In this document: positions 4,059 to 59,210 of the stretch, piece after piece | Layout: each line of letters begins with the position of its first letter | Numbering within the stretch: the stretch's first letter is position 1 | NCBI GenBank assembly: GCA_964016885.1 | Contig: OZ024741.1 | Coordinates: 234,360,001-234,424,000 of the forward strand | DNA from: Eledone cirrhosa | Lineage: Eukaryota | Length of the DNA: 64,000 nucleotides | Reading direction: 5' to 3' | Position numbers and translations under genes: made by a program | Notes under the pieces: generated by a model | Seen by the model: the letters and a program-made list of their open reading frames with translations, nothing else | Told to the model about the DNA's origin: nothing | Databases searched by the model: none

Positions 4059-5046
4059 ATGATAATAATAATAATTTCGTTTATTAGCCACAAGGGCCGA
4101 CATGTAGGGGACAATACAAAGACAGGGACATTGGGGGTTTACAATAAGGTCGAGTAAAAGTGCACAATGGCAAGACTAATTTAACAATGAAGATATAAAA
4201 ATATAAAATAAACTATGCATAAATATAACAAAATAAATTCCCCTGTAGGAGGCGGACGACCCAGGTCTGACTCAGGTACCCCACCAATCCTGAAACAACC
4301 TGCGCTTCTAGGTCACCCAGGGAGAGCACCCCTCTCCTCAAGTTAGCTAGCCTATAGGCGCATGGCCATTCTCGCCACATTCATCCACCTTTTAGCAAAT
4401 GTACTGGGGGGCAGCACTTCTCTCTCCACCCTCACCTTCCTTTCCAGGTGAAATTTGAAGAAGTTGATGAGGGATTGGCCGAACAGAAAAGTGTCTGTCT
4501 TCAGTCCGTTTAATCTGGTCCACTTTCGCAACGGCCACCAGACAGAGGAAAATTGCCTGCTCTTCATGACCTAAGGAAGGCGCCGGGTCGATCTTCACTA
4601 TGGACTCGGCCGATAGCTGGATCCGTTCTACACGCGACAGTAGCTGTTCGACATAATTCCACAAGTCAGTAATGCACGCACATTGGACAAGTGCTTGCAG
4701 GACGATTTCGTCGCTCTGTGCGCATCTTGGGCAGGTCCATCTGACAGCACTTCCGTGCCTGTAGAGTTTATCCCGAACCGGCAGTGCCCCCCGGTAGCAC
4801 TGCCAAGCGAGGGATTTCTGGAAATTGTCCATCGTCCCCGGCTCGAAAGTCCTCCAGTACAGACTGGTCAGTTCGACTTCGTCGAGGCGCAAAGCTTCTC
4901 CGAGTGCGTCATCACACTTGCCCACCACTAATCCTCTATTGAACTCGAGAGTGGAAGTTCCACTGATCGCATTGCCCGCTTGGTAGAGGGCAGTGAGTGC
5001 CTGGCAACATTCCAGGTGCCAGTCACCCAGTCTCGGTCTCTTCTTG
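4055..5046 (-). pseudogene. L1/Tx1-clade LINE 3' fragment with 3' UTR, AATAAA and (ATT)n tail
   Basis: Paralogous to 1821-2700 (SLAWQCYRGALPVRDKLYRHGSAV..CPRC); ends GGCCCTTGTGGCTAATAAACGAAATTATTATT. Confidence 0.85.
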
Positions 5047-5242
5047 ATAATAATAATAATTGTTTCTACTTTTGGCACAAGGCCAGCAATTATCCCAGTG
5101 TATTACTGGTACTATATTTTATCGACCCCATAAGGATGAAAGGCAAAGTTAACCTCGGCGGGATTTGAACTCAGAATGGCAAGGGCCGTAACTCTATGCG
5201 TTGAAGCATGGCGTCCGACCCTCTACCGATACTGCCAATCCA
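5047..5242 (-). mobile_element. Nin-domain tRNA SINE, full length
   Basis: Reverse complement of the 2846-3031 family. Confidence 0.9.
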
Positions 5243-6449: not shown

Positions 6450-9300
<2,851 letters not shown>

Positions 9301-27944: not shown

Positions 27945-27986
27945 CAAATCAAATGTAATTTGGAATCACAGTGACATCCACCCAAT

Positions 27987-30704
27987 ATGTACCCTGTTCA
28001 GTCTAGCTACCCTATTGGAAGTCAGCAAGGCATTAACAACCAATCGTTGTACCAAAACCACCATCTGAAAGGCCACCCAAATGCTTCGTCTGGGGGCAAA
28101 GCATTTCGACCTTTGGATGGCTCTGGAGGCACAACAGCGACAGCCACTAGTGTTACAACATCTAGTGGAGGCGGGAAGAGCTTTAGAAATGATACAATTG
28201 CCCGCAAAGATTTGTCTACTCAAAGAACTGCCTTGCCTAACCTCAATCAGGGTAGTTCCTCTACAAACAATAACACCACCGGCAATACGCCCCTTATTCA
28301 AAAAACATATCCCTGTACCATTTGTAAGAAGATATTTTCCAGCCCATTTTTCCTCAAAAATCATGAGCAAACTCACCAGATACACTCAATGGGGACGTCA
28401 AAACCATTTGGCTGTTCTGGATGTCACAAGCAGTTCCCTCTATTCGTGGACTTAAAGAATCACAATTGTATGCCTGTCCAGTCCCAGACAACACAGGAAA
28501 TGACAGGACAAAGAAATCTGATGGGCAACAATATGCATTCAAAACCATATCATTGCGACATATGCAACAGAGGCTTTTCCCACCATGCTAATTTAAAGTT
28601 GCACCTTCGCACTCATTCCGGTGACAAACCATTTTCTTGTGAGGTATGCGGCAAAAGTTTCTCTCAGAAGAACTGTCTGAATGATCACAAACGGCTTCAC
28701 AGTGGAGATTTGTTCTACTGCAGTTACTGCAAGAAGCCATTCGCCAATGAATTCTTTCTACGCAACCATCTAAGAACTCATACTGGCGAGAAGCCTTTTG
28801 AATGCAACTTTTGCGACAAGAAGTTTTCACAGCGCGGTAACTTGAAAACTCATATGCGCATACACACAGGGGAGAAACCGTTTCAGTGTGACCTCTGCGA
28901 TAAATCTTTTGCTCAGAAGAATTGCCTGACAGACCACAAACGCCTTCACACAGGCGACATGTTTTTCTGTATTGTCTGCAAGAAGGCATTCACTAACCAA
29001 TTTTTCTTGAAAATCCACGAACAGAGCCACACTGCTGTAAGTAATAGTGAAGGAGGCGAGTCTATGTTTTATTGCACCTTTTGCAAAAAGGGATTCTCAA
29101 ATCAGTTTTTCCTACGTAACCATGAACGGACACACACAGGAGAAAAACCTTTCCACTGTCAGTTTTGTGGTAAATCATTTGCTCAAAGTGGAAACTACCG
29201 ATCACACATGAGAATACATACTGGCGAAAAGCCATTTGTCTGTGATGTCTGTGGAAAAGCATTTACTCAAAGAAACAGCCTTAGCGATCACAAACGCTTT
29301 CACACTGGCGAATTGTATTATTGTAGTGTGTGCAAGAAGGCCTTTTGCAATCAATTTTTCTTGAAGATTCATGAACAGACTCATTCAGGGGAGGTATATT
29401 ATTGTTCCTATTGCAAGAAAGGTTTCCCTAATCAATTCTTCTTAAAAAATCACTTGAGGACTCACACAGGTGAGAAGCCATTTGTGTGTCAATTTTGCAA
29501 TAAAGCTTTTGCCCAGCGAGGAAACTTAAAACTTCATGTGAGAATACACACTGGGGAGAAACCACATGTCTGTGACATTTGTGGTAAAGGTTTTGCACAG
29601 AAAAACTGTCTGATTGATCACAAGAGGATTCATAGTGGAGATTTGTTCTTCTGTATTGTATGTAACAAAGCGTTTACAAACCAATTTTTCTTAAAAATCC
29701 ATGAACAAGCTCACACTGGTGAAATGTTCTATTGTAGCTACTGCAAAAAGGGATTTTCTAACCAATTCTTCTTAAAAAATCATGAAAGGACCCATACAGG
29801 AGAAAAGCCATTCCAATGTAATTTCTGTAAAAAGAGCTTTTCTCAGCGTGGTAATCTAAAGTTACATCTACGGAGACACACTGGTGAGAGGCCATTTAAC
29901 TGTGACGACTGTGGCAAATCTTTCAGTCAACGCAACAATCTTATTGACCACAAAAGAGTACACAACGGAGAGCTATTTTATTGTAACTTCTGCAAGAAGC
30001 CATTCTGCAACAAATTTTTCCTACAGAATCATGAGCGAACTCACACTGGAGAGAAGCCATTTGAATGTGAGTATTGCAAGGAGAAGTTTTCACACCAGGG
30101 TAATTTAAAAACTCATCTTCGCAAACATACTGGAGAGAAACCATTCTCGTGTGATCACTGTGGCAAGTCATTTACTCAGCGACCTAATCTGACCAACCAC
30201 AAGTGTCCTGCTGCTATAGCTGCTGCTGCTGCAGGGGACAGGATGTTTCTCAAGGGAACCAATACTCTGTCATCGACAATCAATACCCTCGGTAAGAAGT
30301 TCAATACTGGCACAGTTAGCAGTGACGGAGAACTAAAATCCCTAAACTACAGCTCCTCGAACAAAGAAGCCAACTCCCAGATGAAAACGAACATAAAAAA
30401 CAGTGAGATGGTACGTGATCAATCAAACCAACAGAGCAAAGATTCCTCAGTGACTACACCAATTAGGCCTCAGGCATCTACTGCTTCTTCTTCACATTCC
30501 AACTCAACCTACATTCATGGAATGCCTCAGTCATGGGAGAACAACTATTTGTGGTCACGAGGTTTTGCAGTACCACCTTTAATTGGCTCCGCCTGGCCCA
30601 GCGTCACTTGTAGCTCCAAACAAAACAAGCAGAACGCCTGGGGTAACCTTCAAGGGATGCACTCTTCAAGGAATACATCAGAAGATATCAGTAGTTCCAA
30701 GTGA
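27987..30704 (+). CDS. C2H2 zinc-finger protein ZF-A, 905 aa, 22 fingers (20 C2H2 + 2 C2HC), single coding exon
   Basis: Uninterrupted ORF; CxxC-x12-HxxxH repeats with TGEKP linkers; downstream AATAAA at 30781 and beyond. Confidence 0.95.
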   Translation: MYPVQSSYPIGSQQGINNQSLYQNHHLKGHPNASSGGKAFRPLDGSGGTTATATSVTTSSGGGKSFRNDTIARKDLSTQRTALPNLNQGSSSTNNNTTGNTPLIQKTYPCTICKKIFSSPFFLKNHEQTHQIHSMGTSKPFGCSGCHKQFPLFVDLKNHNCMPVQSQTTQEMTGQRNLMGNNMHSKPYHCDICNRGFSHHANLKLHLRTHSGDKPFSCEVCGKSFSQKNCLNDHKRLHSGDLFYCSYCKKPFANEFFLRNHLRTHTGEKPFECNFCDKKFSQRGNLKTHMRIHTGEKPFQCDLCDKSFAQKNCLTDHKRLHTGDMFFCIVCKKAFTNQFFLKIHEQSHTAVSNSEGGESMFYCTFCKKGFSNQFFLRNHERTHTGEKPFHCQFCGKSFAQSGNYRSHMRIHTGEKPFVCDVCGKAFTQRNSLSDHKRFHTGELYYCSVCKKAFCNQFFLKIHEQTHSGEVYYCSYCKKGFPNQFFLKNHLRTHTGEKPFVCQFCNKAFAQRGNLKLHVRIHTGEKPHVCDICGKGFAQKNCLIDHKRIHSGDLFFCIVCNKAFTNQFFLKIHEQAHTGEMFYCSYCKKGFSNQFFLKNHERTHTGEKPFQCNFCKKSFSQRGNLKLHLRRHTGERPFNCDDCGKSFSQRNNLIDHKRVHNGELFYCNFCKKPFCNKFFLQNHERTHTGEKPFECEYCKEKFSHQGNLKTHLRKHTGEKPFSCDHCGKSFTQRPNLTNHKCPAAIAAAAAGDRMFLKGTNTLSSTINTLGKKFNTGTVSSDGELKSLNYSSSNKEANSQMKTNIKNSEMVRDQSNQQSKDSSVTTPIRPQASTASSSHSNSTYIHGMPQSWENNYLWSRGFAVPPLIGSAWPSVTCSSKQNKQNAWGNLQGMHSSRNTSEDISSSK

Positions 30705-50169: not shown

Positions 50170-52548
50170 TCACGAGTTCTGTTTGCCATGTTTGCCGCTA
50201 GAGTAAGATGTAGGCATGTTTGGCCAGCTGGAGCCAAGCAAGGTAGGCATTGGGTAGCCTCTTGGCCAGAGGTAATTTGTTTCCCAGTTCTGTGACATCT
50301 CATGGAGGTAAGCAGCAGAATTAAACCGAGACAGGTTTGAAGGATGTAGTCGCATTCCAGTCTGGGAATCTTGCGGATTTTGATGATGGTGTTGCTCTGA
50401 CCGTGCCATATGAGAATTTGGTATATGTTCTGGATGGTGTTTATTGTTTTTCATATTGTGCTTGCCGGAATTCGACGATAACATTGATGGCTGATGAGCT
50501 TGTTGCTGCTGCTGCTGTTGTTGTTGTTGTTGTTGCTGCTGCTGCTGCTGCTGAGGTTTCGATGAACTTGTATCACAGTTATATGAAGATGTCTGAGAAG
50601 TTGATGATAAATTGCTCTTTTCGTGGAGCTGATGGCCCTCGTTGTCATTCTTCTCCTCAGAAGACATCATCATTGATGTCCCCATCACTGGGAGAGAATC
50701 AGAACCTGACATGGGAGGCGAGAGGTTGGAGTCTTTAGGGTACATCATACAGCCATGAGAAGATTGTGAAGAGGTAGAGGACATTGGTGGTTGCTTGGCA
50801 AAAAGTTCACAGCCCGTCCGAGTCCTTTTGTGGTTGTTTAAGTTGGCTCGCTGTGAAAATGACTTGTTGCACGTATCACACTTGAATGGTTTCTCTCCAG
50901 TGTGTGTCCTCATGTGTAACTTCAAATTTCCAGCTTGAGAAAAAGCCTTCGAACAAATCTGACATTGGAATGGTTTTTCTCCTGTGTGAGTTCTCTCATG
51001 GTTACGCCATTCAGTTCGCTGTGAGAAGAGCTTGTTACAGTAGCTGCAATGGAAAGGTTTTTCTCCGGTATGGACCCGGATGTGGTTTTTCAGGCTAATT
51101 TGCAAAGTAAACTCCTTGGTGCAATAGTCGCATTTAAACAACTGTCCTGTGTGGACACGTTGGTGATTTTCAAGATTAGTTTTCTGTGAAAAACACTTGT
51201 CACAAAGGTCACACTTGAAAGGTTTCTCACCTGTGTGTGTTCTCATGTGTAACTTGAGGTTTCCGTGCTGACTAAAAGACTTTGAACACATACTGCAATG
51301 AAATGGTTTCTCTCCGGTATGAGTCCTCAGATGGTTCTTTAGATTAATCAAAAGTGTGAAATCTTTTGGACAAAATGTACATTTGTAAAGTTCTCCCGTG
51401 TGAGTGCGCTCATGAATTTTCAAAAAGAATTGGTTGCAAAATGGTTTTTTACAATAATTGCAATAGAATAGATCACCAGTGTGCAGCCTTTTGTGGTCAC
51501 TCAGATTCACCTTTTGTGAAAAAGCTTTGCCGCATACATCGCAGGCAAATGGCTTCTCTCCAGTATGTGTTCTAAGATGGAGCTTTAAGTTACCTCTCTG
51601 GCTAAAAGCCTTCGAACAAACGCTGCAGGAAAATGGTCGTTCGCCAGTATGTGTTCTCAAATGATTTTTTAAGTTTGTCTCTTGTGAGAAACATTTGTTG
51701 CAGAAATGACAGTGAAAGGGCTTTTCACCTGTATGTATACGTTCATGTATTTTGAGGAAGAACTCATTAGAGAATGGTTTCTTACAGAACTGACAGTAGA
51801 GGAGGTCTCCAGTGTGAATACGGTTGTGGTAAGTCAAGTTGATTTTTTGAGAAAAGCATTTACCACACACTTCACATGAATATGGTTTCTCCCCAGTGTG
51901 TGTTCTGAGATGGAGTTTGAGGTTACCCTGTTGACTGAAGGCCTTTGGACAAAGGGAACACTGAAAAGGTTTCTCCCCTGAGTGGGTCCTTAAATGGTTT
52001 TTGAGATTGATTTTCTGCGTAAAGGCTTTGTCACAAGAATTGCAGTCAAATGGTCGAACGCCTGTGTGCGTGAGCTCATGGTTCTTTAAGAAGAACTGGT
52101 TGGTGAATCCTTTTTTACAAAATGTACAAAAGAAAGATTTCTCGTTACCACCTTGACTATTTCGCATGCTTTCACTATCTTGTTGGTTGTCATTGCTGGT
52201 GCCGCCACCACCACCACCACCACCATCACTCCCACTATTGCCACCTGCACCACCACTATTATTGTTGCCAGGACTGCTGCATGTTGAAGCTGGACCACTG
52301 TTATTCATGCACATATTGTTGTTGCCACTGTTGTTATTGTCTGTATTATGGCCCCCACTGGTGCCATCATTGGCACCGTTTGATTGACTAAAGTCTTTCC
52401 ACATAAGATCATTGCTCTTGTCGAGAATGTTCATGATCTGTGACTTGTCAGGGACTTTTAAATGACAACCAGGGTTGTAGATTGGCTGACCATAGAAGCC
52501 AGAAGTGTTGTTGAAGTTCATTGGGAAAACCGGTTGAATTGGATACAT
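50170..52548 (-). CDS. C2H2 zinc-finger protein ZF-B, 792 aa, 16 fingers (last one degenerate), polyG and polyQ tracts, single coding exon
   Basis: Uninterrupted ORF; TGEKP-linked fingers; paralogous to ZF-A. Confidence 0.95.
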
Positions 52549-52601
52549 TATTAAACAGTTCTTGAAATGATCAACTGAACACTGGTGGTGTAGTGGTAGT
52601 G

Positions 52602-52614
52602 CTACAGCAGATTA

Positions 52615-52647: not shown

Positions 52648-54659
52648 CAAAATATATATATTTTGTGTGAGTCACCTCAACATGATCTCCACACATAAAT
52701 CCTCAAATGTCATCATTCATAAAACACCAGGGGAAAAACAGTCAGATGAAGAAGAAATGATACAAGCCACAGTGTATCCTTCTGCTTGTCTTCTAATTAA
52801 ATAACAGTGCTCAAAATGAAAATGTGAGAAATTGCACAAGTGGTCTTAGAAATAATATATGTATGCACATATATACATACTGGGGTTTAAAATGACAGTA
52901 TGGTTTAATAGAACTTAAGTGACAAGATGATAAGAATGAGATGGTAGGTGGGATTTTAAATTCATTCTGTGCTAACATCAAAGATTGTTGCTCCTGCTGC
53001 TGTTGTTGTTGGTGGTGGCTGTTTTCCAGTTCTTTTATTCCAATATTGTTAGAAAAGAAAACTTGGTGGCAGTGTAGAGTAGCAGTGCTTCAAGACAGGC
53101 TGTCTGAAATATAAAGGTGATTTATTAGTGATTGAAAAGGATGTGAGAGTATCTGTGTGTGCATGTGCAAGCAAGTATATGCATATCTGTATATGTATGT
53201 GTATGTGCATGTGTGTGTGTGTATGAATGTATGTAGGAACTATGCCAAAAGGACACAACAAACTTCTAGTGATAAAACTTCTCATGATAAAATGCAACTG
53301 GTGCATTCTGTAGAGTGCAGGAACATATGTAAGTAAGAATTGGGCCCCCTGGCCCATCTGAGAGGTCAGTAGCTCAGATTAAGTACTGACTTGGTCTGTG
53401 ACAACCAATCCAAACTTTCCTAGCAGGGAAAATGGATGTTAAATGATGATGTATGTATGTGCATATATACCTGTACATGTGTTTATGTATATAACTATCA
53501 CTGTCAACTGCCTTAATTTGAACATAAACAATTCTATATGAAACCAATCATGCTATCCACGAAGTCCAGCAAATGCTATCCAATCCATAATCCTACAATC
53601 ATGCCCACTCACCACACAAGACAAAGTAAAATTCTAACATATTCTTCAAAACCATACCCTAACCACCTGGCAAAACAACAACCAGCCCGCAGCAATTACT
53701 GATGTGAGGGGGCACAGACGTCATCAGGCTGCAGTTGTTGTATTACATAGTTTCTACATTGTGTACATTATTTTATTATACTTTGTTCCCTGAAATCAAA
53801 GACTGATAGCTGATGTTTAAGGAAATTACAAAAATACAAGGACCGTGACAAGTGGAGAGATGTTGTGCTGAGTAGGACCTGTCCACCCTTGCAAGCAGGG
53901 AAAAGCGGACGTAAAATGATGATGATGATAATGACACCCTAGAACTAAATATAAATATTATTGAGCTCATGAGAACTTCCTACCCACATTCAAATTTGTA
54001 ACTGCCTACTGAATCATCATCACTACTATCATCATCATCGTTCAACACCATTTTCTATGCTTGCATGGTTTGGACGGGCTATCTCGTACTGAGGCTAAAC
54101 TGGTCAGATGACCTCATCTTGCCTATACATTCCATTCTGGACTTCGTTTTCTACAGCTGGATGCCCTTCCTAATCCTAATGTCATTTTATAATGTGTACT
54201 GGATGTGTTTTTGTCATGGCACCAATACTACCACCTTACAGGGTGAACTGGATGCTTTTTGTTGTGGCACCAACATGATCACCTTATAGGTTGGGCTGGG
54301 TGCTTTTTCTTGTGGATATATATATATATAGGGAGGAAATGGTTGAATCCTTAAGACCAAAACAATAATTAAGTTACATAACTTTAAATTTGTAAAATCA
54401 AAATTTTTTATGTACATATAATTTAATCATGGTATTGAAAAGGTTACTCTTAGCTTGCTAGAAATAGCAGTCAAATCAAACTCTACTGACTGGAAAAAAA
54501 CACACACAAGAGAAAGTTAGTGCTTCATATATATATATATATAAAAACTCAAAAAAGCAGATGGTCATGCCTGGAACAGCTTTCATCACAGCTCTGTTAG
54601 ATCAGACCAGACTGGAAGATAAGCAGCAACAACATATAAATATTATTGTATTTGTTTAA

Positions 54660-54860
54660 CCCTTTCATCACCGTATTTCTAATGAAATACACTGCCTATG
54701 TGCTTTAATCAATTTTTAAAATAACCAAATATTTTTAGGAATTTAATAAAAATAACCTTTTCATTAGCAAGCTGATATGTAGAGCATTACATAACAAAAA
54801 TTTCTTAAATAAAACTATGATGAAAAGATTTATTTTAAGTATAAACAATTTTAAATGTGT
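54660..54860. mobile_element. piggyBac-type MITE end
   Basis: TTAA followed by CCCTTTCATCACC; partner end not found. Confidence 0.45.
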
Positions 54861-54879
54861 ACTTTTGAATCATAAATCT

Positions 54880-55190
54880 TCGAAAACGAACCAAGTGAAG
54901 TAGGGCAAATCATATAACCCTGAGTGCCCATTCTCCCTGAGCAGATAGAGAGTGGAACACATTCTGAGCTCATGTAGAGTAGCACTAACCTAAATACACA
55001 TGGAAGCACAATCAAGTGCTTAAGGAGATCATACATATGGTAAGTACAGCAAAAGTAAAATCCGTTGCACCATTTTACACGACAGGAGGCAGCAAATCAT
55101 GGCTAGGAACAGCTATGCCATACTGGGTATGGGAGTGGAGTCTTTTGGGTCGTGCAGATGACTAGGAGTGCACAGCAGACCACCAAGGAT
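54880..55190 (+). pseudogene. HERO-type non-LTR retrotransposon, CCHC knuckle region (left part of a split element)
   Basis: Manual translation: N.VK*GKSYNPECPF....VEHILSSCRVAL..KYTWKHNQVLKEI...LLGRADD*ECTAD. Confidence 0.75.
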
Positions 55191-55205
55191 CTTTTTAAAC
55201 AAACA

Positions 55206-55211
55206 TTTATT
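55206..55211 (-). promoter_or_regulatory. Candidate polyadenylation signal of the transposase
   Basis: AATAAA on the minus strand about 135 nt after the stop codon. Confidence 0.5.
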
Positions 55212-55345
55212 AACAACACAAGGCTTCAACGTCATTCAAACTATATAGAAAAGCAGAAAAACATCAAAAATACAGTTTTTAAGGTTAGATTAGTTACTAA
55301 ACATGGATCCACAAATTTTAGAGGCACCTTTTCTCCAGAACCTAT

Positions 55346-57115
55346 TCAGTAATGTAAATTTGTGTGGAATGTCTTGAAACATGGGTCTACACATAGAGCA
55401 ACTTCACAGTCTGCGCATTGGTAGCGACTTTCTCTCCTTCTATCATTATCGGAACATACTTTGCACTTCCTGGTTGGATTTGGCTTCTTTTCGGTTGGTG
55501 GAATCAGAGAAGGTAAGTGCCTTTCAGTCAAACGAAGTGTATTTTCAATGGACAGGCGGCCACCGCTTGTCTTTGACCGTTGCACATGGTGTCTTTCCAC
55601 TAAACTGCGGATAACGCTCATTCTGAAGTCAAGGAGTGATGAGTCATTTCCCACAGCTTTGTACAATATCAAAGCATTGAACAAAGATATATCCAGCATG
55701 TGAAAAAATACTTTTTTGTACCATTTTATGGTTTTTCGCATACTGGGGTACGCATGCTGTACACTATCACATAAGTCCCCACCTCCCATGTATTTGATAT
55801 AGTCAACCACACATTTAGGCTTTACCACATCCGTACCAATTGCTATACTCCTTCCGGTATTTTGCATTGAATTGTCATGCATTGTACTAAGCATAAAAAT
55901 GTCTTGCTTATCCTTCCAATGATAAGCAGCAGTACCTCCTTTCTGGAATACTTCCATTTCTCCAGTCTGCATTTTTGAAAAGTCAGATTTCGGCATTCCA
56001 CTTCTGTTTTTCTGCACAGTTCCACACATGTAGGTTTGATTATCCAGCAACATGTTTGCCAGAGTAGGGCTAGTAAAAAATCTGTCAAGGTAGAGTTTAT
56101 AATTTTGGCCAAACAAGGGCTCCATGAAGGTGTAAACAACCCTTTCACCTTGGTCACTCTCCTCAGTACTGTATCGTGCAGTGGCATCGGTATATACAAG
56201 AAAGTCCCACACATAGCCAGTTGTACTTCCACAAAGTTCATAGCTTTTCACTCCAAACCTGGCCCGCTTGGTCGGAATGTATTGGCGAAATCCAAGCCGA
56301 CCCTTCCACAAGATCAGCGACTCGTCAATACAGACATGTTCACGTGGTAGATATGACGTCCTGAACTTTTCTCGCAAGTGGTCAATAATGGGCTGTAATT
56401 TGTAAAGCCTTTCATCAGCATTTTGCTGGGTATTATCAGCAAAATGTAGCATAGTCAGCAGGAGCAGGAAACGGTTTTTGGTCATACACTGTCCAAAAAA
56501 TGGAGTAGAAATCAGTGGATCAGTGCTGAAATACATGGAAATTTTAGGTTTCTTTTCTATCCCCATTAGCATAATCAATGCAAAAAATTCATATATTTCA
56601 TCGCTGTTGGTTGGTTTCCATGCTTTTATCCTGGAGTATTCCATTAGATCATATCTAGCTATGAACAACTGAGCATACTTGTTTGTCTCTGTAACTATGT
56701 GATATACTAAGTTCGGTGAAACGAACTTTTTGAAGCAGACAACAGGCTCAGATTCCTGCGTCAAATCCTGATGTTGAACACCATGATTTCCGGAAAATTC
56801 ATTAACAAATGGTGGTGTAAATGACTTTGAGTTCCAATCACTTTCACTAACACGAGAAGAACGTTTTTTCTTTGTATTTTCTTTTCTTTGACTCTGTCGC
56901 GTGCGTTTTCCCCGCCCGTGTGTATTTACACTCTGTTGACCTGTACTTGTTGATGGTTGGTTTATATCAATATCGGTATCACTTGAGCTCGATTCAACTT
57001 CAGGATCACATGAAAAATCACTATCTAGTTCACTATTATAATCCTCATCATCAGAACCGTGAGTAAATATTATTTCCAAAACATCTTTTACATTTACTGT
57101 TTTTCTTGACGCCAT
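55346..57115 (-). CDS. piggyBac transposase (PGBD4-like), 589 aa from the first in-frame ATG
   Basis: Acidic N-terminus; DDD motifs IDESL, LDRFFTS and GGGDLCD; C-terminal Cys-rich domain CKVC..CADC...C..PC...H; no stops. Confidence 0.92.
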   Translation of the reverse strand: MASRKTVNVKDVLEIIFTHGSDDEDYNSELDSDFSCDPEVESSSSDTDIDINQPSTSTGQQSVNTHGRGKRTRQSQRKENTKKKRSSRVSESDWNSKSFTPPFVNEFSGNHGVQHQDLTQESEPVVCFKKFVSPNLVYHIVTETNKYAQLFIARYDLMEYSRIKAWKPTNSDEIYEFFALIMLMGIEKKPKISMYFSTDPLISTPFFGQCMTKNRFLLLLTMLHFADNTQQNADERLYKLQPIIDHLREKFRTSYLPREHVCIDESLILWKGRLGFRQYIPTKRARFGVKSYELCGSTTGYVWDFLVYTDATARYSTEESDQGERVVYTFMEPLFGQNYKLYLDRFFTSPTLANMLLDNQTYMCGTVQKNRSGMPKSDFSKMQTGEMEVFQKGGTAAYHWKDKQDIFMLSTMHDNSMQNTGRSIAIGTDVVKPKCVVDYIKYMGGGDLCDSVQHAYPSMRKTIKWYKKVFFHMLDISLFNALILYKAVGNDSSLLDFRMSVIRSLVERHHVQRSKTSGGRLSIENTLRLTERHLPSLIPPTEKKPNPTRKCKVCSDNDRRRESRYQCADCEVALCVDPCFKTFHTNLHY

Positions 57116-57297
57116 CTTACCATTCAAATCACACGCGTACTATAAGAATAACAATGACAAAAAAAAATCTCAAATGATCACTGAGAAAAAAACCCATGCG
57201 AAATTTATTTGGTAACCGTACTCATATCTGAATGATTGACAAATGCCACATCAATCAACTAGTAGCCCCATCTAACTTTGAAGTTATGAACTGTTGG

Positions 57298-57440
57298 AAA
57301 AGAGTTATCTCGTCCGTGGCCCTGGAATGCATACATGTTAGAACAAGTTATCTAGTCCGTGGCACTAGAATGTATACATGTTAGGACGAGTTATCTTGTC
57401 CGTGGAACTGGATGCATATATTAGGACGAGATATCTCGTC
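57298..57440. repeat. piggyBac subterminal tandem repeat, about 43 bp x 3.3
   Basis: GGACGAGTTATCTCGTCCGTGGCACTGGAATGCATACATGTTA; each unit contains the palindrome GGACGAG-N4-CTCGTCC. Confidence 0.9.
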
Positions 57441-57456
57441 TACAATACGATAGAGG

Positions 57457-58170
57457 TTAAGACCGGATATCGTACTCCATTCCAGTTCATCAAAACAGTT
57501 GATTTTGATTGATCTTACCATGCCATTTGAAAGTAAAATAGAAGAAACACACGTGTTCGAGATCGAAAAATACGCCAGTTAGGGAAACAGCCTGAAGGAA
57601 GCTAACTTCCGCATCAAAGTTCTCGCCATAGAAGTTAGAGCTAGATGCTTTGTTGGCAAATATGCCTACAATCTCATAAAACAACTCTCAGTTTCTGTGA
57701 AGAGCAAGACCAAAGACAATATCACAGGCAGCGGGGAGGAGTTCCAGCTGTATCTGGTCAAGGAGGGACAAAAACAACCTCCATGTTGTTTGAGGGCATC
57801 GTGTTTGTATTTTAATGTACGCCAAGGGGAGTAACTTGTAGTGATGGCGGCGACGGAGACACTGTAGAGTCTCCCCGCTACCTTGACTACCAACGCTATT
57901 TTTCCAAACTCAAGAAAGCGTTTAAATATGTTTGAAAGCAGGAGTAACAGAGATGAGTTCCAGCTGCATCTTGTCAACAAAATGCGGTTTAAATGCACAA
58001 CAAATTTCCGATATCCAAGTAGCTAAAAAAAAGTCAGCAAAAGGGCACCCAGGATTAATGACCACGATACAGCCCGGCCCCCTTTAGAGCCTAAGAAGTT
58101 ATGAGGCGAAACACTTGTATGAGTGGGGTTTCTTTTTAGAAGACCTTCTGCTATCCAGCTCTCCAGAGAG
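57457..58170 (+). pseudogene. HERO-type retrotransposon RLE domain and 3' UTR (right part of the split element)
   Basis: LRPDIVLHS..KQLILIDLTMPFE...EKY..*...AIEVRARCFVG, starting exactly at the TTAA. Confidence 0.8.
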
Positions 58171-59210
58171 TTTCTTATCATCATAAAAGAGGACGTCAGT
58201 GTTAATTTCTACTGTATGTATAATTTTATAATGACATTTTTTTCTTATCTTAACACGACCATAAATATCTCTCTTTTAACAGAATCGGTACAAGATTTAA
58301 CCGATGCCACATTTACACATGCATGCACCTTCGGTGAAATCGTGTTTTGTTTCTGTACAGATATGTATCTACAGCATATGTCAGTTACTTAGTGCACAAT
58401 TCAATACATAACTCTCTTCCCATTCGAGAGAGGTAAATCCTTAATTTGAGATACTACGAGCTGCAACTCGTTCTCTGCCTCCAACGTTGTCGTTTCGGCC
58501 GAAAACCCAGGCACTGCCAAACACCGGAGTTTGACATACTTCTTCCTTCGATACATCAGGTATCCCATTTTCCTTCGCAAAATCAGAAAAACAACAGACC
58601 GCTTAAAGGATGCAGGGTGACTGTTGCACTTGGCAATACCTTCGCCATTTTGTCCGCAAGACACAGCTAAGAGAAACCATTCGGACTGGGGTGTAGAGTC
58701 TGATTCCATTCCCTGTTTAATTTTTTTCTTTCATTTTTATTTTTCTTCTATTTTTCATTCATAACTATCCAGAGGGAAAAAATTCCTTTAAGACGACAGC
58801 AGTTATCTCCCTTCTATTTGTTAGCCGATTGAATAGACCTTCGTTGGTTTTGACGATATGTGTTCCAGTTGTTCGTTCAATGGAACAGCCTGTTCGTGAA
58901 ATTAACGTGCTGTGGTAAGTGACGCTCAAGATGCCACGATATTGACGTCGAACCTAGTACCTATGGATTGCGAAGCAAACTTCTTAACTTTTAGACTATG
59001 CTGCACCCACTACCTATTTGCATCTACTCATGAAACAAAGAGAAGAATTAAAACCTACATATATTTCGCTAGAACAAAGTTAAGGACTAAATACATAATA
59101 TATAAATCAAGTCGTATTTATTACAACTTTTCTCATTCTTTACCAGTAAATGTTTACATAGAGATCATGAATAGACAAACAGCTGTTTCAACTGTTGACA
59201 TTCTCTAGCA

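Follow-up and report, generated by a model that had tools for sequence, protein, structure and literature searches.

Expansions of C2H2 zinc-finger genes have been described in coleoid cephalopods (PMC9068888), including four small coleoid-wide clusters (163, 132, 76 and 39 sequences) with the highest expression (PMC12513265). Two long zinc-finger frames, ZF-A (+) and ZF-B (-), lie in a 64,000-nucleotide stretch of the Eledone cirrhosa genome (hereafter the window; GCA_964016885.1, contig OZ024741.1, positions 234,360,001 to 234,424,000 of the forward strand), which is animal DNA with abundant AT microsatellites. Judged by its shared motifs, ZF-A belongs to a coleoid family of C2H2 genes that is old and conserved, resembles the described expansions in its clustered multi-finger genes without KRAB, SCAN or BTB, and is found in both octopods and a cuttlefish, much as the four coleoid-wide clusters are widespread. 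The new feature is a junction rule that couples a four-residue link between fingers to a bulky residue at helix position +2. In the main text of PMC12513265 the words linker, helix, motif and periodic never occur, and the cluster lists of that paper may already group the genes of this family; no description of the family or of the junction was found in the open-licence PMC and bioRxiv literature, subscription papers and supplements being outside the scope.

Spacer fingers are known from TFIIIA (ZF4 and ZF6), CTCF (ZF8), Zfp568 (ZF2), HIC2 (ZF2) and BCL11A (ZF6) (PMC12006351, PMC8084297), where they interrupt canonical triplet reading and extend the span of the array, as is proposed here for fingers with two phenylalanines at helix positions +2 and +3 (FF fingers). 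The known spacers share no sequence signature (PMC12006351), whereas the present family has a candidate signature repeated dozens of times, its spacer role being putative. Sequence features that predict spacer fingers are unknown, and base-reading and spacer fingers in long C2H2 arrays are currently unpredictable (PMC12006351). Because one non-canonical junction, governed by a strict residue rule, occurs naturally 53 times in the family, the question of spacer versus reader becomes directly testable.

Junctions were counted in 18 family genes, a set that excludes L026 and the non-gene L029, giving 53 four-residue and 171 five-residue links. After a four-residue link, helix +2 was F, I or V in 53/53 cases (F 66%, I 32%, V 2%), -1 was mostly N or L, and the residue preceding the first Cys was mostly Y, K or F, while after a five-residue link -1 was Q in 87%, and T, G, N and A were the commonest residues at +2. 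The finger before a short link carried D or I at +6 in 76% and retained Arg+9 in 91%, and 35 of the 44 FF fingers came after a short link, six more being first fingers. In eight FF-bearing genes, C-to-A links had four residues in 25/25 cases, and five-residue links joined A2 to B (16/16), D to B (12/12) and B to C (25/25), where A1, A2, B, C and D are the finger types set out below. The first half of A2 resembles A1 (0.55 versus 0.21 for D) and its second half is closest to D (0.59 versus 0.41), so that A2 looks like a chimera of the two, which suggests that mid-helix crossovers keeping the junctions intact would turn ADBC into ABC and AABC. The conserved unit appears to be the junction (half finger, link, half finger), which would account for the interconversion of ABC, AABC and ADBC periods.

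ZF-A lies in an open frame at 27975-30704 (+) with a Met at 27987, and its coding sequence (27987..30704, +) is a single open frame of 905 amino acids that begins with the MYP..Q motif of the family. It encodes 22 fingers, which finger parsing divided into an isolated FF-type finger 1 (helix SPFFLKN; 28308..28376, +), a degenerate CCHC finger 2 (28407..28469, +), and the main array F3-F22 (28548..30206, +). The tandem Cys-X2-Cys-X12-His-X3-His fingers, with a predicted beta-beta-alpha fold, make ZF-A a classical (Kruppel-type) C2H2 protein; TGEKP-type five-residue links do not run throughout, since 7 of the 19 links in F3-F22 have four residues, one has twelve, and 11 have five. The last finger (30144-30206, +) closes in H-K-C and that of ZF-B (50809-50886, -) in H-KRTRTG-C, an ending common to several paralogues and to the Sepia-cluster protein P0121. 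Pfam returned zinc-finger families only for both frames (C2H2-type for ZF-A), and no N-terminal effector domain of the KRAB, SCAN, ZAD or BTB type was found by Pfam in either frame, although upstream coding exons could exist.

The initial annotation had read F3-F22 as three cycling helix types in the order BC-ABC-AABC-AABC-AABC-ABC, and finger parsing bore this order out. Type A splits in two: A1 helices carry FFLKI and mostly precede a short link, and A2 helices carry FFL[KR]N and precede TGEKP. The repeating unit, A1-A2-B-C, thus has four distinct fingers, and the array reads BC-A2BC-(A1A2BC)x3-A2BC. As annotated, all C-to-A links have four residues (5/5), namely SGDL (28701..28712, to A2), TGDM (28950..28961, to A1), TGEL (29304..29315, to A1), a second SGDL (29634..29645, to A1) and NGEL (29964..29975, to A2), and so do most A-to-A links (2/3), namely SGEV (29385..29396) and TGEM (29715..29726), both A1 to A2, the exception being a 12-residue A1-to-A2 link (29031..29066; all on the + strand). 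Every A-to-B and B-to-C link of ZF-A has five residues. F3 (HHANLKL), F10 (QSGNYRS) and F21 (HQGNLKT) belong to type B only loosely, and the Q(-1)/N(+3) helix ascribed to the array is found in the B fingers, but in most C fingers of ZF-A position +2 is N and position +3 is C, S or N. At lag 4 the helix identity was 0.643, compared with 0.358 after shuffling, and 0/20,000 shuffles reached it (p=5e-5).

ZF-B (50170..52548, -, 792 amino acids, in an open frame spanning 50170-52611, -) is a convergent paralogue that shares the N- and C-terminal motifs of ZF-A. Its 16-finger array (50809..52134, -) has the four-finger period that had been claimed for it (helix identity at lag 4 of 0.643 versus 0.412 shuffled, 0/20,000 shuffles as high), but the unit is A-D-B-C, with just 3 FF fingers among the 16, and four short links (TGDL, TGDL, TGEL and TGQL).

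The hallmark of the family is the MYP..Q start together with a Trp-rich C-terminal motif, which defines the family, lies at 30510..30620 (+) in ZF-A and at 50200..50310 (-) in ZF-B, and has W, Y, W and R invariant in 18 members. A search of the Eledone genome with the tail motif gave 21 places; 17 of the 19 stretches around tail matches beyond the window held zinc-finger arrays, and 5 of 20 further zinc-finger stretches of the genome were tail-positive. This brings the family to 24 genes in the Eledone genome, 13 of them at G000:C2:233.7-237.4 Mb, with a short link in 14 and FF fingers in ten. Within this region, L026, L098 and L027 (G000:C2:233.72-233.86 Mb) are three tandem copies about 60 kb apart, the first two broken by stops. 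The tail had no convincing Pfam match and no usable ESM Atlas match; it is a possible candidate for a cofactor-binding motif.

A tail profile searched against 1.84 billion representatives gave 14 matches, of which 9 were single-stretch. The five multi-stretch matches were set aside, and the two of them that were inspected (P0128 and P0129) proved to be unrelated repeats. Six of the nine single-stretch matches fall in named clusters (Octopus vulgaris/sinensis/bimaculoides, Argonauta hians and Sepia pharaonis), and all named relatives of the family are coleoid cephalopods, octopod and decapodiform, with none named outside cephalopods. Since there are both octopod and Sepia members, the family predates the octopod-decapodiform split, which took place about 270 million years ago. 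The Sepia protein P0122 carries an SGDL junction and the Sepia-like P0138 has three short links, each before a non-FF finger; FF fingers were observed in octopod sequences alone.

Across octopods, the arrays of three paralogues are 97-100% identical to those of their orthologues. The L027 array is identical to that of Octopus vulgaris/sinensis at 354/355 positions, and to that of Argonauta at 347/355 (helices 90/91, flanks 88%), the L021 array matches two Octopus proteins at 327/327 (helices 84/84), and the L037 array matches Argonauta at 186/191 (flanks 73%). The homologue searches were word-based and weak, so that a blank in them is no evidence of absence. With the whole array as query, 2 of the 120 matches listed were family members and most were generic poly-finger proteins; the tail retrieved nothing, and the short-link segment retrieved one candidate but not a relative already known. 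Looked up exactly, 10 sequences from 9 family genes gave no match, no RNA data set was listed as containing the ZF-A stretch, and ESM Atlas searched with the array gave generic zinc-finger clusters.

In the other best matches of the whole-array search (118 non-octopus poly-finger proteins, mostly vertebrate), 31/2269 junctions were one residue short, the strict pattern occurred 0 times, and two aromatics at +2/+3 were found in 4/2645 fingers. Within the Eledone genome, the short link, searched for with a strict DNA pattern, matched at 44 places, 43 of them in family genes and the remaining one with an in-frame stop (reversed-pattern control 0), a DNA pattern for FF gave 80 matches, 44 in the cluster and 36 in scattered T-rich strings counted as a group (control 15), and fifteen tail-negative zinc-finger genes had 7/200 four-residue junctions (one SGEL) and 0/218 FF fingers. 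A scan of metagenomes for the short link found 48 loci, 40 of which had the link in an open zinc-finger frame, none with FF or the tail, and F, I, L or V came next in 1/40 distinct helices. Three near-identical loci (L044, L049 and L066) encode unrelated nine-finger proteins with TGEM every third finger, an independent short-link period. An excess of aromatics at +2/+3 after short links outside the family was unsupported (8/40 versus 19/201, p=0.09). The pattern is rare in its strict form, while the short link by itself is present in unrelated proteins on metagenome contigs; it arose elsewhere too, and its coupling to a bulky +2 residue is seen only in this cephalopod family. Periodicity by itself is ordinary in C2H2 arrays, which expand mainly by 2-4 fingers (PMC1553488), although 7/10 long family arrays were periodic at p<0.01, compared with 6/54 long background arrays. 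The pattern is real, old and rarer than chance, and is a variant of the C2H2 array, not a new kind of system.

Tandem Repeats Finder called no tandem repeat in the ZF-A or ZF-B array. Between ZF-A fingers of the same type, 63/96 four-fold sites and 230/502 other silent sites differ, compared with 94/131 and 577/1182 between fingers of different types, and two adjacent 330-bp ZF-A units share 68% of their DNA and 74% of their protein positions, with a silent difference in 45 of 81 conserved codons. Silent sites between ZF-A repeats are saturated, and the repeats are therefore old, with the pattern kept at the protein level. These saturated sites and the lack of called tandem repeats rule out that the period stems from recent tandem duplication or gene conversion. 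ZF-A is like PRDM9-type minisatellite arrays in being a long single-exon array with recurring finger types. In PRDM9 the fingers are near-identical in DNA and the contact residues change fast, unlike the saturated silent sites of ZF-A and the conserved contact residues of the family, and neither the ZF-A nor the ZF-B array shows near-identical DNA repeats or concerted evolution.

AlphaFold2 models were built from 14-row alignments, without DNA and zinc, for a C-A junction triple (C^A1^A2; mean predicted local distance difference test score (pLDDT) 86.9, predicted template modelling score (pTM) 0.57) and for a control A2-B-C triple (pLDDT 91.4, pTM 0.62). The control superposed on the designed array Aart at 0.8 Å root-mean-square deviation (rmsd; template modelling score (TM) 0.96, Z 12.0, 79 residues aligned), despite the FF finger inside it, whereas C^A1^A2 matched DNA-bound triples at best with an rmsd of 2.7-3.0 Å (Z about 9.2, 77 aligned), its best match being ZBTB24 (TM 0.73, rmsd 2.6-2.7 Å). 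Among the 50 matches listed, rmsd was 2.7-3.8 Å for C^A1^A2 and 0.8-2.4 Å for the control. The predicted geometry is normal for A2-B-C and distorted for C^A1^A2; no PDB chain with short-linked geometry stood out.

The best explanation, to which we give a probability of roughly 0.5, is that ZF-A would bind A/T-rich DNA in a sequence-specific way, as an array in which three-finger heads read xAA and short-linked FF fingers serve as off-register spacers, the array having arisen by ancient duplication of three- and four-finger units. Internal duplication of such units likely built the arrays of the whole family, the normally linked heads (A2 or D, B, C) likely read xAA-type triplets, and the short-linked FF fingers likely dock off-register, spacing the heads and resetting the phase of the array. 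In TGEKP, T, G and E form a latch, K contacts phosphate and P fixes the next aromatic residue (PMC8084297). The short link, in which KP is replaced by one hydrophobic residue, would keep the T/S-G-E/D helix cap and Arg+9 and lose the phosphate-binding Lys and the stacking Pro. Runs of canonical fingers are limited to about 4-5, spacer fingers lengthening the span (PMC8084297), and the longest normally linked run within the ZF-A main array is three fingers. In SALL4, close approach is possible with Gly at +2, and a clash is expected with a larger residue (PMC9838217); Phe or Ile at +2 would hinder the usual closeness to the bases, and its side chain would pack against the previous helix, sugars or thymine methyls. 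Residue +2 and the +6 residue of the preceding finger share one base pair (PMC7293014, PMC3668361), and these are the positions that co-vary at the short junctions of the family.

The A-rich target proposed by the initial annotation is plausible. N at +3 favours A in the recognition code, and the designed helices QSGNLTE, QRANLRA and QKSSLIA read CAA, AAA and ATA (PMC9705829 table, finger order reversed). Helices with Q-1 and N+3 such as QSGNLTE and QRANLRA occur in designed ANN-reading fingers, a class that includes Aart (PDB 2i13), which the A2-B-C model fits, and SALL4 ZFC4 Znf7, on AT-rich DNA, has G+2, N+3 and V+6 (PMC9838217), as the B helix has G+2, N+3 and an aliphatic residue or Thr at +6. 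Both SALL4 ZFC4 and the designed arrays are two-finger or all-TGEKP proteins, unlike ZF-A, and the short link was absent from the listed PDB matches inspected, where the alignments were gapped. By the recognition code, B would read (T/N)AA and C would read NAA or NTA, giving a head preference of about NTA-NAA in ZF-A or NAA-NAA-NAW in ZF-B. B helices and the QRANL or QKANL runs of paralogues resemble designed CAA and AAA fingers, and the paralogues L093 and L094, which have normal links and such runs, suggest that the whole family may read A-rich DNA. L093 (G000:C766:90500-96500) and L094 (C7:9133000-9139000) are family members with at least 10 fingers, mostly QRANL or QKANL, and are candidate poly(dA) binders; L036 and L090 are arrays of near-identical HQTTL or HQTNL helices, with the tail motif in L036 and no tail match in L090.

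Several observations weigh against this explanation. The genes in which junctions were counted are related, so that the counts do not represent independent events, ABC arrays have the short junction only and no separate spacer finger, and the orthologue of ZF-A itself was not retrieved in the homologue searches, so that conservation rests on paralogues. The recognition code predicts natural arrays poorly (PMC7293014). Over its full length the C^A1^A2 model can still be aligned with normal three-finger DNA complexes (TM mostly 0.65-0.73), so that the A fingers may remain in the major groove, reading T-rich bases, and the lack of two residues trivially accounts for part of its higher rmsd. The suggestion in the initial annotation that A fingers act as spacers is supported in part: a non-canonical role fits the fold comparison of the C-A junction, but the DNA- and zinc-free models align over their whole length.

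Other readings were weighed against the same evidence. One, possible but unlikely and confined to AA-bearing repeats, is that the arrays specialise in simple periodic DNA ((AAT)n, (AAC)n or phased A-tracts) and bind it with all units together, like ZSCAN4 or ZNF512 on repeats. Identical helices do recur up to four times, period 4 is significant in 7/10 long family arrays, NAA-NAA occurs in (AAT)n, (AAC)n and poly-A, and some paralogues are near-homopolymers of QRANL/QKANL; precedents are Zscan4 on (CA)n (PMC7083622) and ZNF512/B on pericentric repeats (PMC13537249). Paralogues nevertheless mix periods 3 and 4 and differ in their helices, which suggests different targets, and a period alone does not imply a periodic target, because internal duplication usually yields multi-finger periodicity in C2H2 arrays. 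The abundant microsatellites of the window, named by the initial annotation as a target, fit poorly, since (AT)n and (AC)n make up 2724/2989 microsatellite bases (91%) and have no AA step, and AA-bearing classes make up 77/2989; this is a single window, in which (AT)n and (AC)n appear a poor fit for the ZF-A helices. Tails of young transposable elements (the annotation's other target was transposon tails) are spoken against by arrays that are near-invariant across octopods. ZSCAN4, ZBTB43 and ZNF512/ZNF512B possibly share with the family the use of repeated helices on repeated DNA, with homology limited to the C2H2 fold; ZNF512 uses long linkers.

An exposed hydrophobic patch, made up of the Tyr/Phe ahead of the first Cys and the FF at +2/+3, might instead make the A fingers mainly protein- or RNA-binding, for oligomerisation or cofactor contact, with only B-C on DNA, a reading that we consider rather unlikely. 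FF helices are invariant at the A1 position in 14 aligned triples, six family genes begin with an isolated or first FF finger, BCL11A multimerises via hydrophobic ZF0/ZF1 (PMC12006351), and the TFIIIA spacer fingers 4 and 6 bind RNA too (PMC8084297). However, the short link also stands before fingers that lack FF and have a normal N+3 helix (D type and P0138), the junction therefore being older or wider than the FF patch, and the A fingers retain basic residues and Arg+9, with TGEKP as the A2-B link. The grammar would be a frozen by-product if one short-linked unit had been duplicated long ago, with few fingers binding and the others kept for folding. Growth of C2H2 arrays mostly by 2-4 fingers, the periodic arrays in the background, and TGE[LM] short links in unrelated proteins, one group with a three-finger period, agree with this, but the helices of every L027 and L021 unit are conserved across octopods (90/91 to 84/84) while flanks drift, and the junction rule is exceptionless over 53 junctions with saturated silent sites in ZF-A; we hold this reading to be quite improbable.

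If the preferred reading of the FF fingers as off-register spacers is carried further, the four-residue link with F/I at +2 would be a phase-reset joint that is reusable and recognisable from sequence, and a 20-finger protein would space identical A-reading heads at roughly one per helical turn along 50-60 bp, a ruler for phased A-tracts or (AAT)n/(AAC)n; we hold this extension to be doubtful. If true, C2H2 arrays would have their first predictable spacer code, and cephalopods a layer of chromatin reading specific to them. The junction could also give protein designers a joint for long arrays, and the family, which is small and conserved and has its own tail motif, provides good candidates for core coleoid regulators among the 1,000+ little-studied cephalopod C2H2 genes.

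Elsewhere in the window, an intact 597-amino-acid piggyBac-like transposase frame (55346-57139, -; DDE_Tnp_1_7, E 1.5e-88, with a C-terminal zf-Tnp_2) lies about 2.8 kb upstream of ZF-B, and no clear terminal inverted repeats were found around it in 54000-58800. A fragment matching zf-RVT (4392-5102, -) is likely a decayed non-LTR (long terminal repeat) retrotransposon. A degenerate (AT)n array of 1.9 kb occupies 7427-9297, and several 30-60-bp minisatellites lie between 18000 and 25200.

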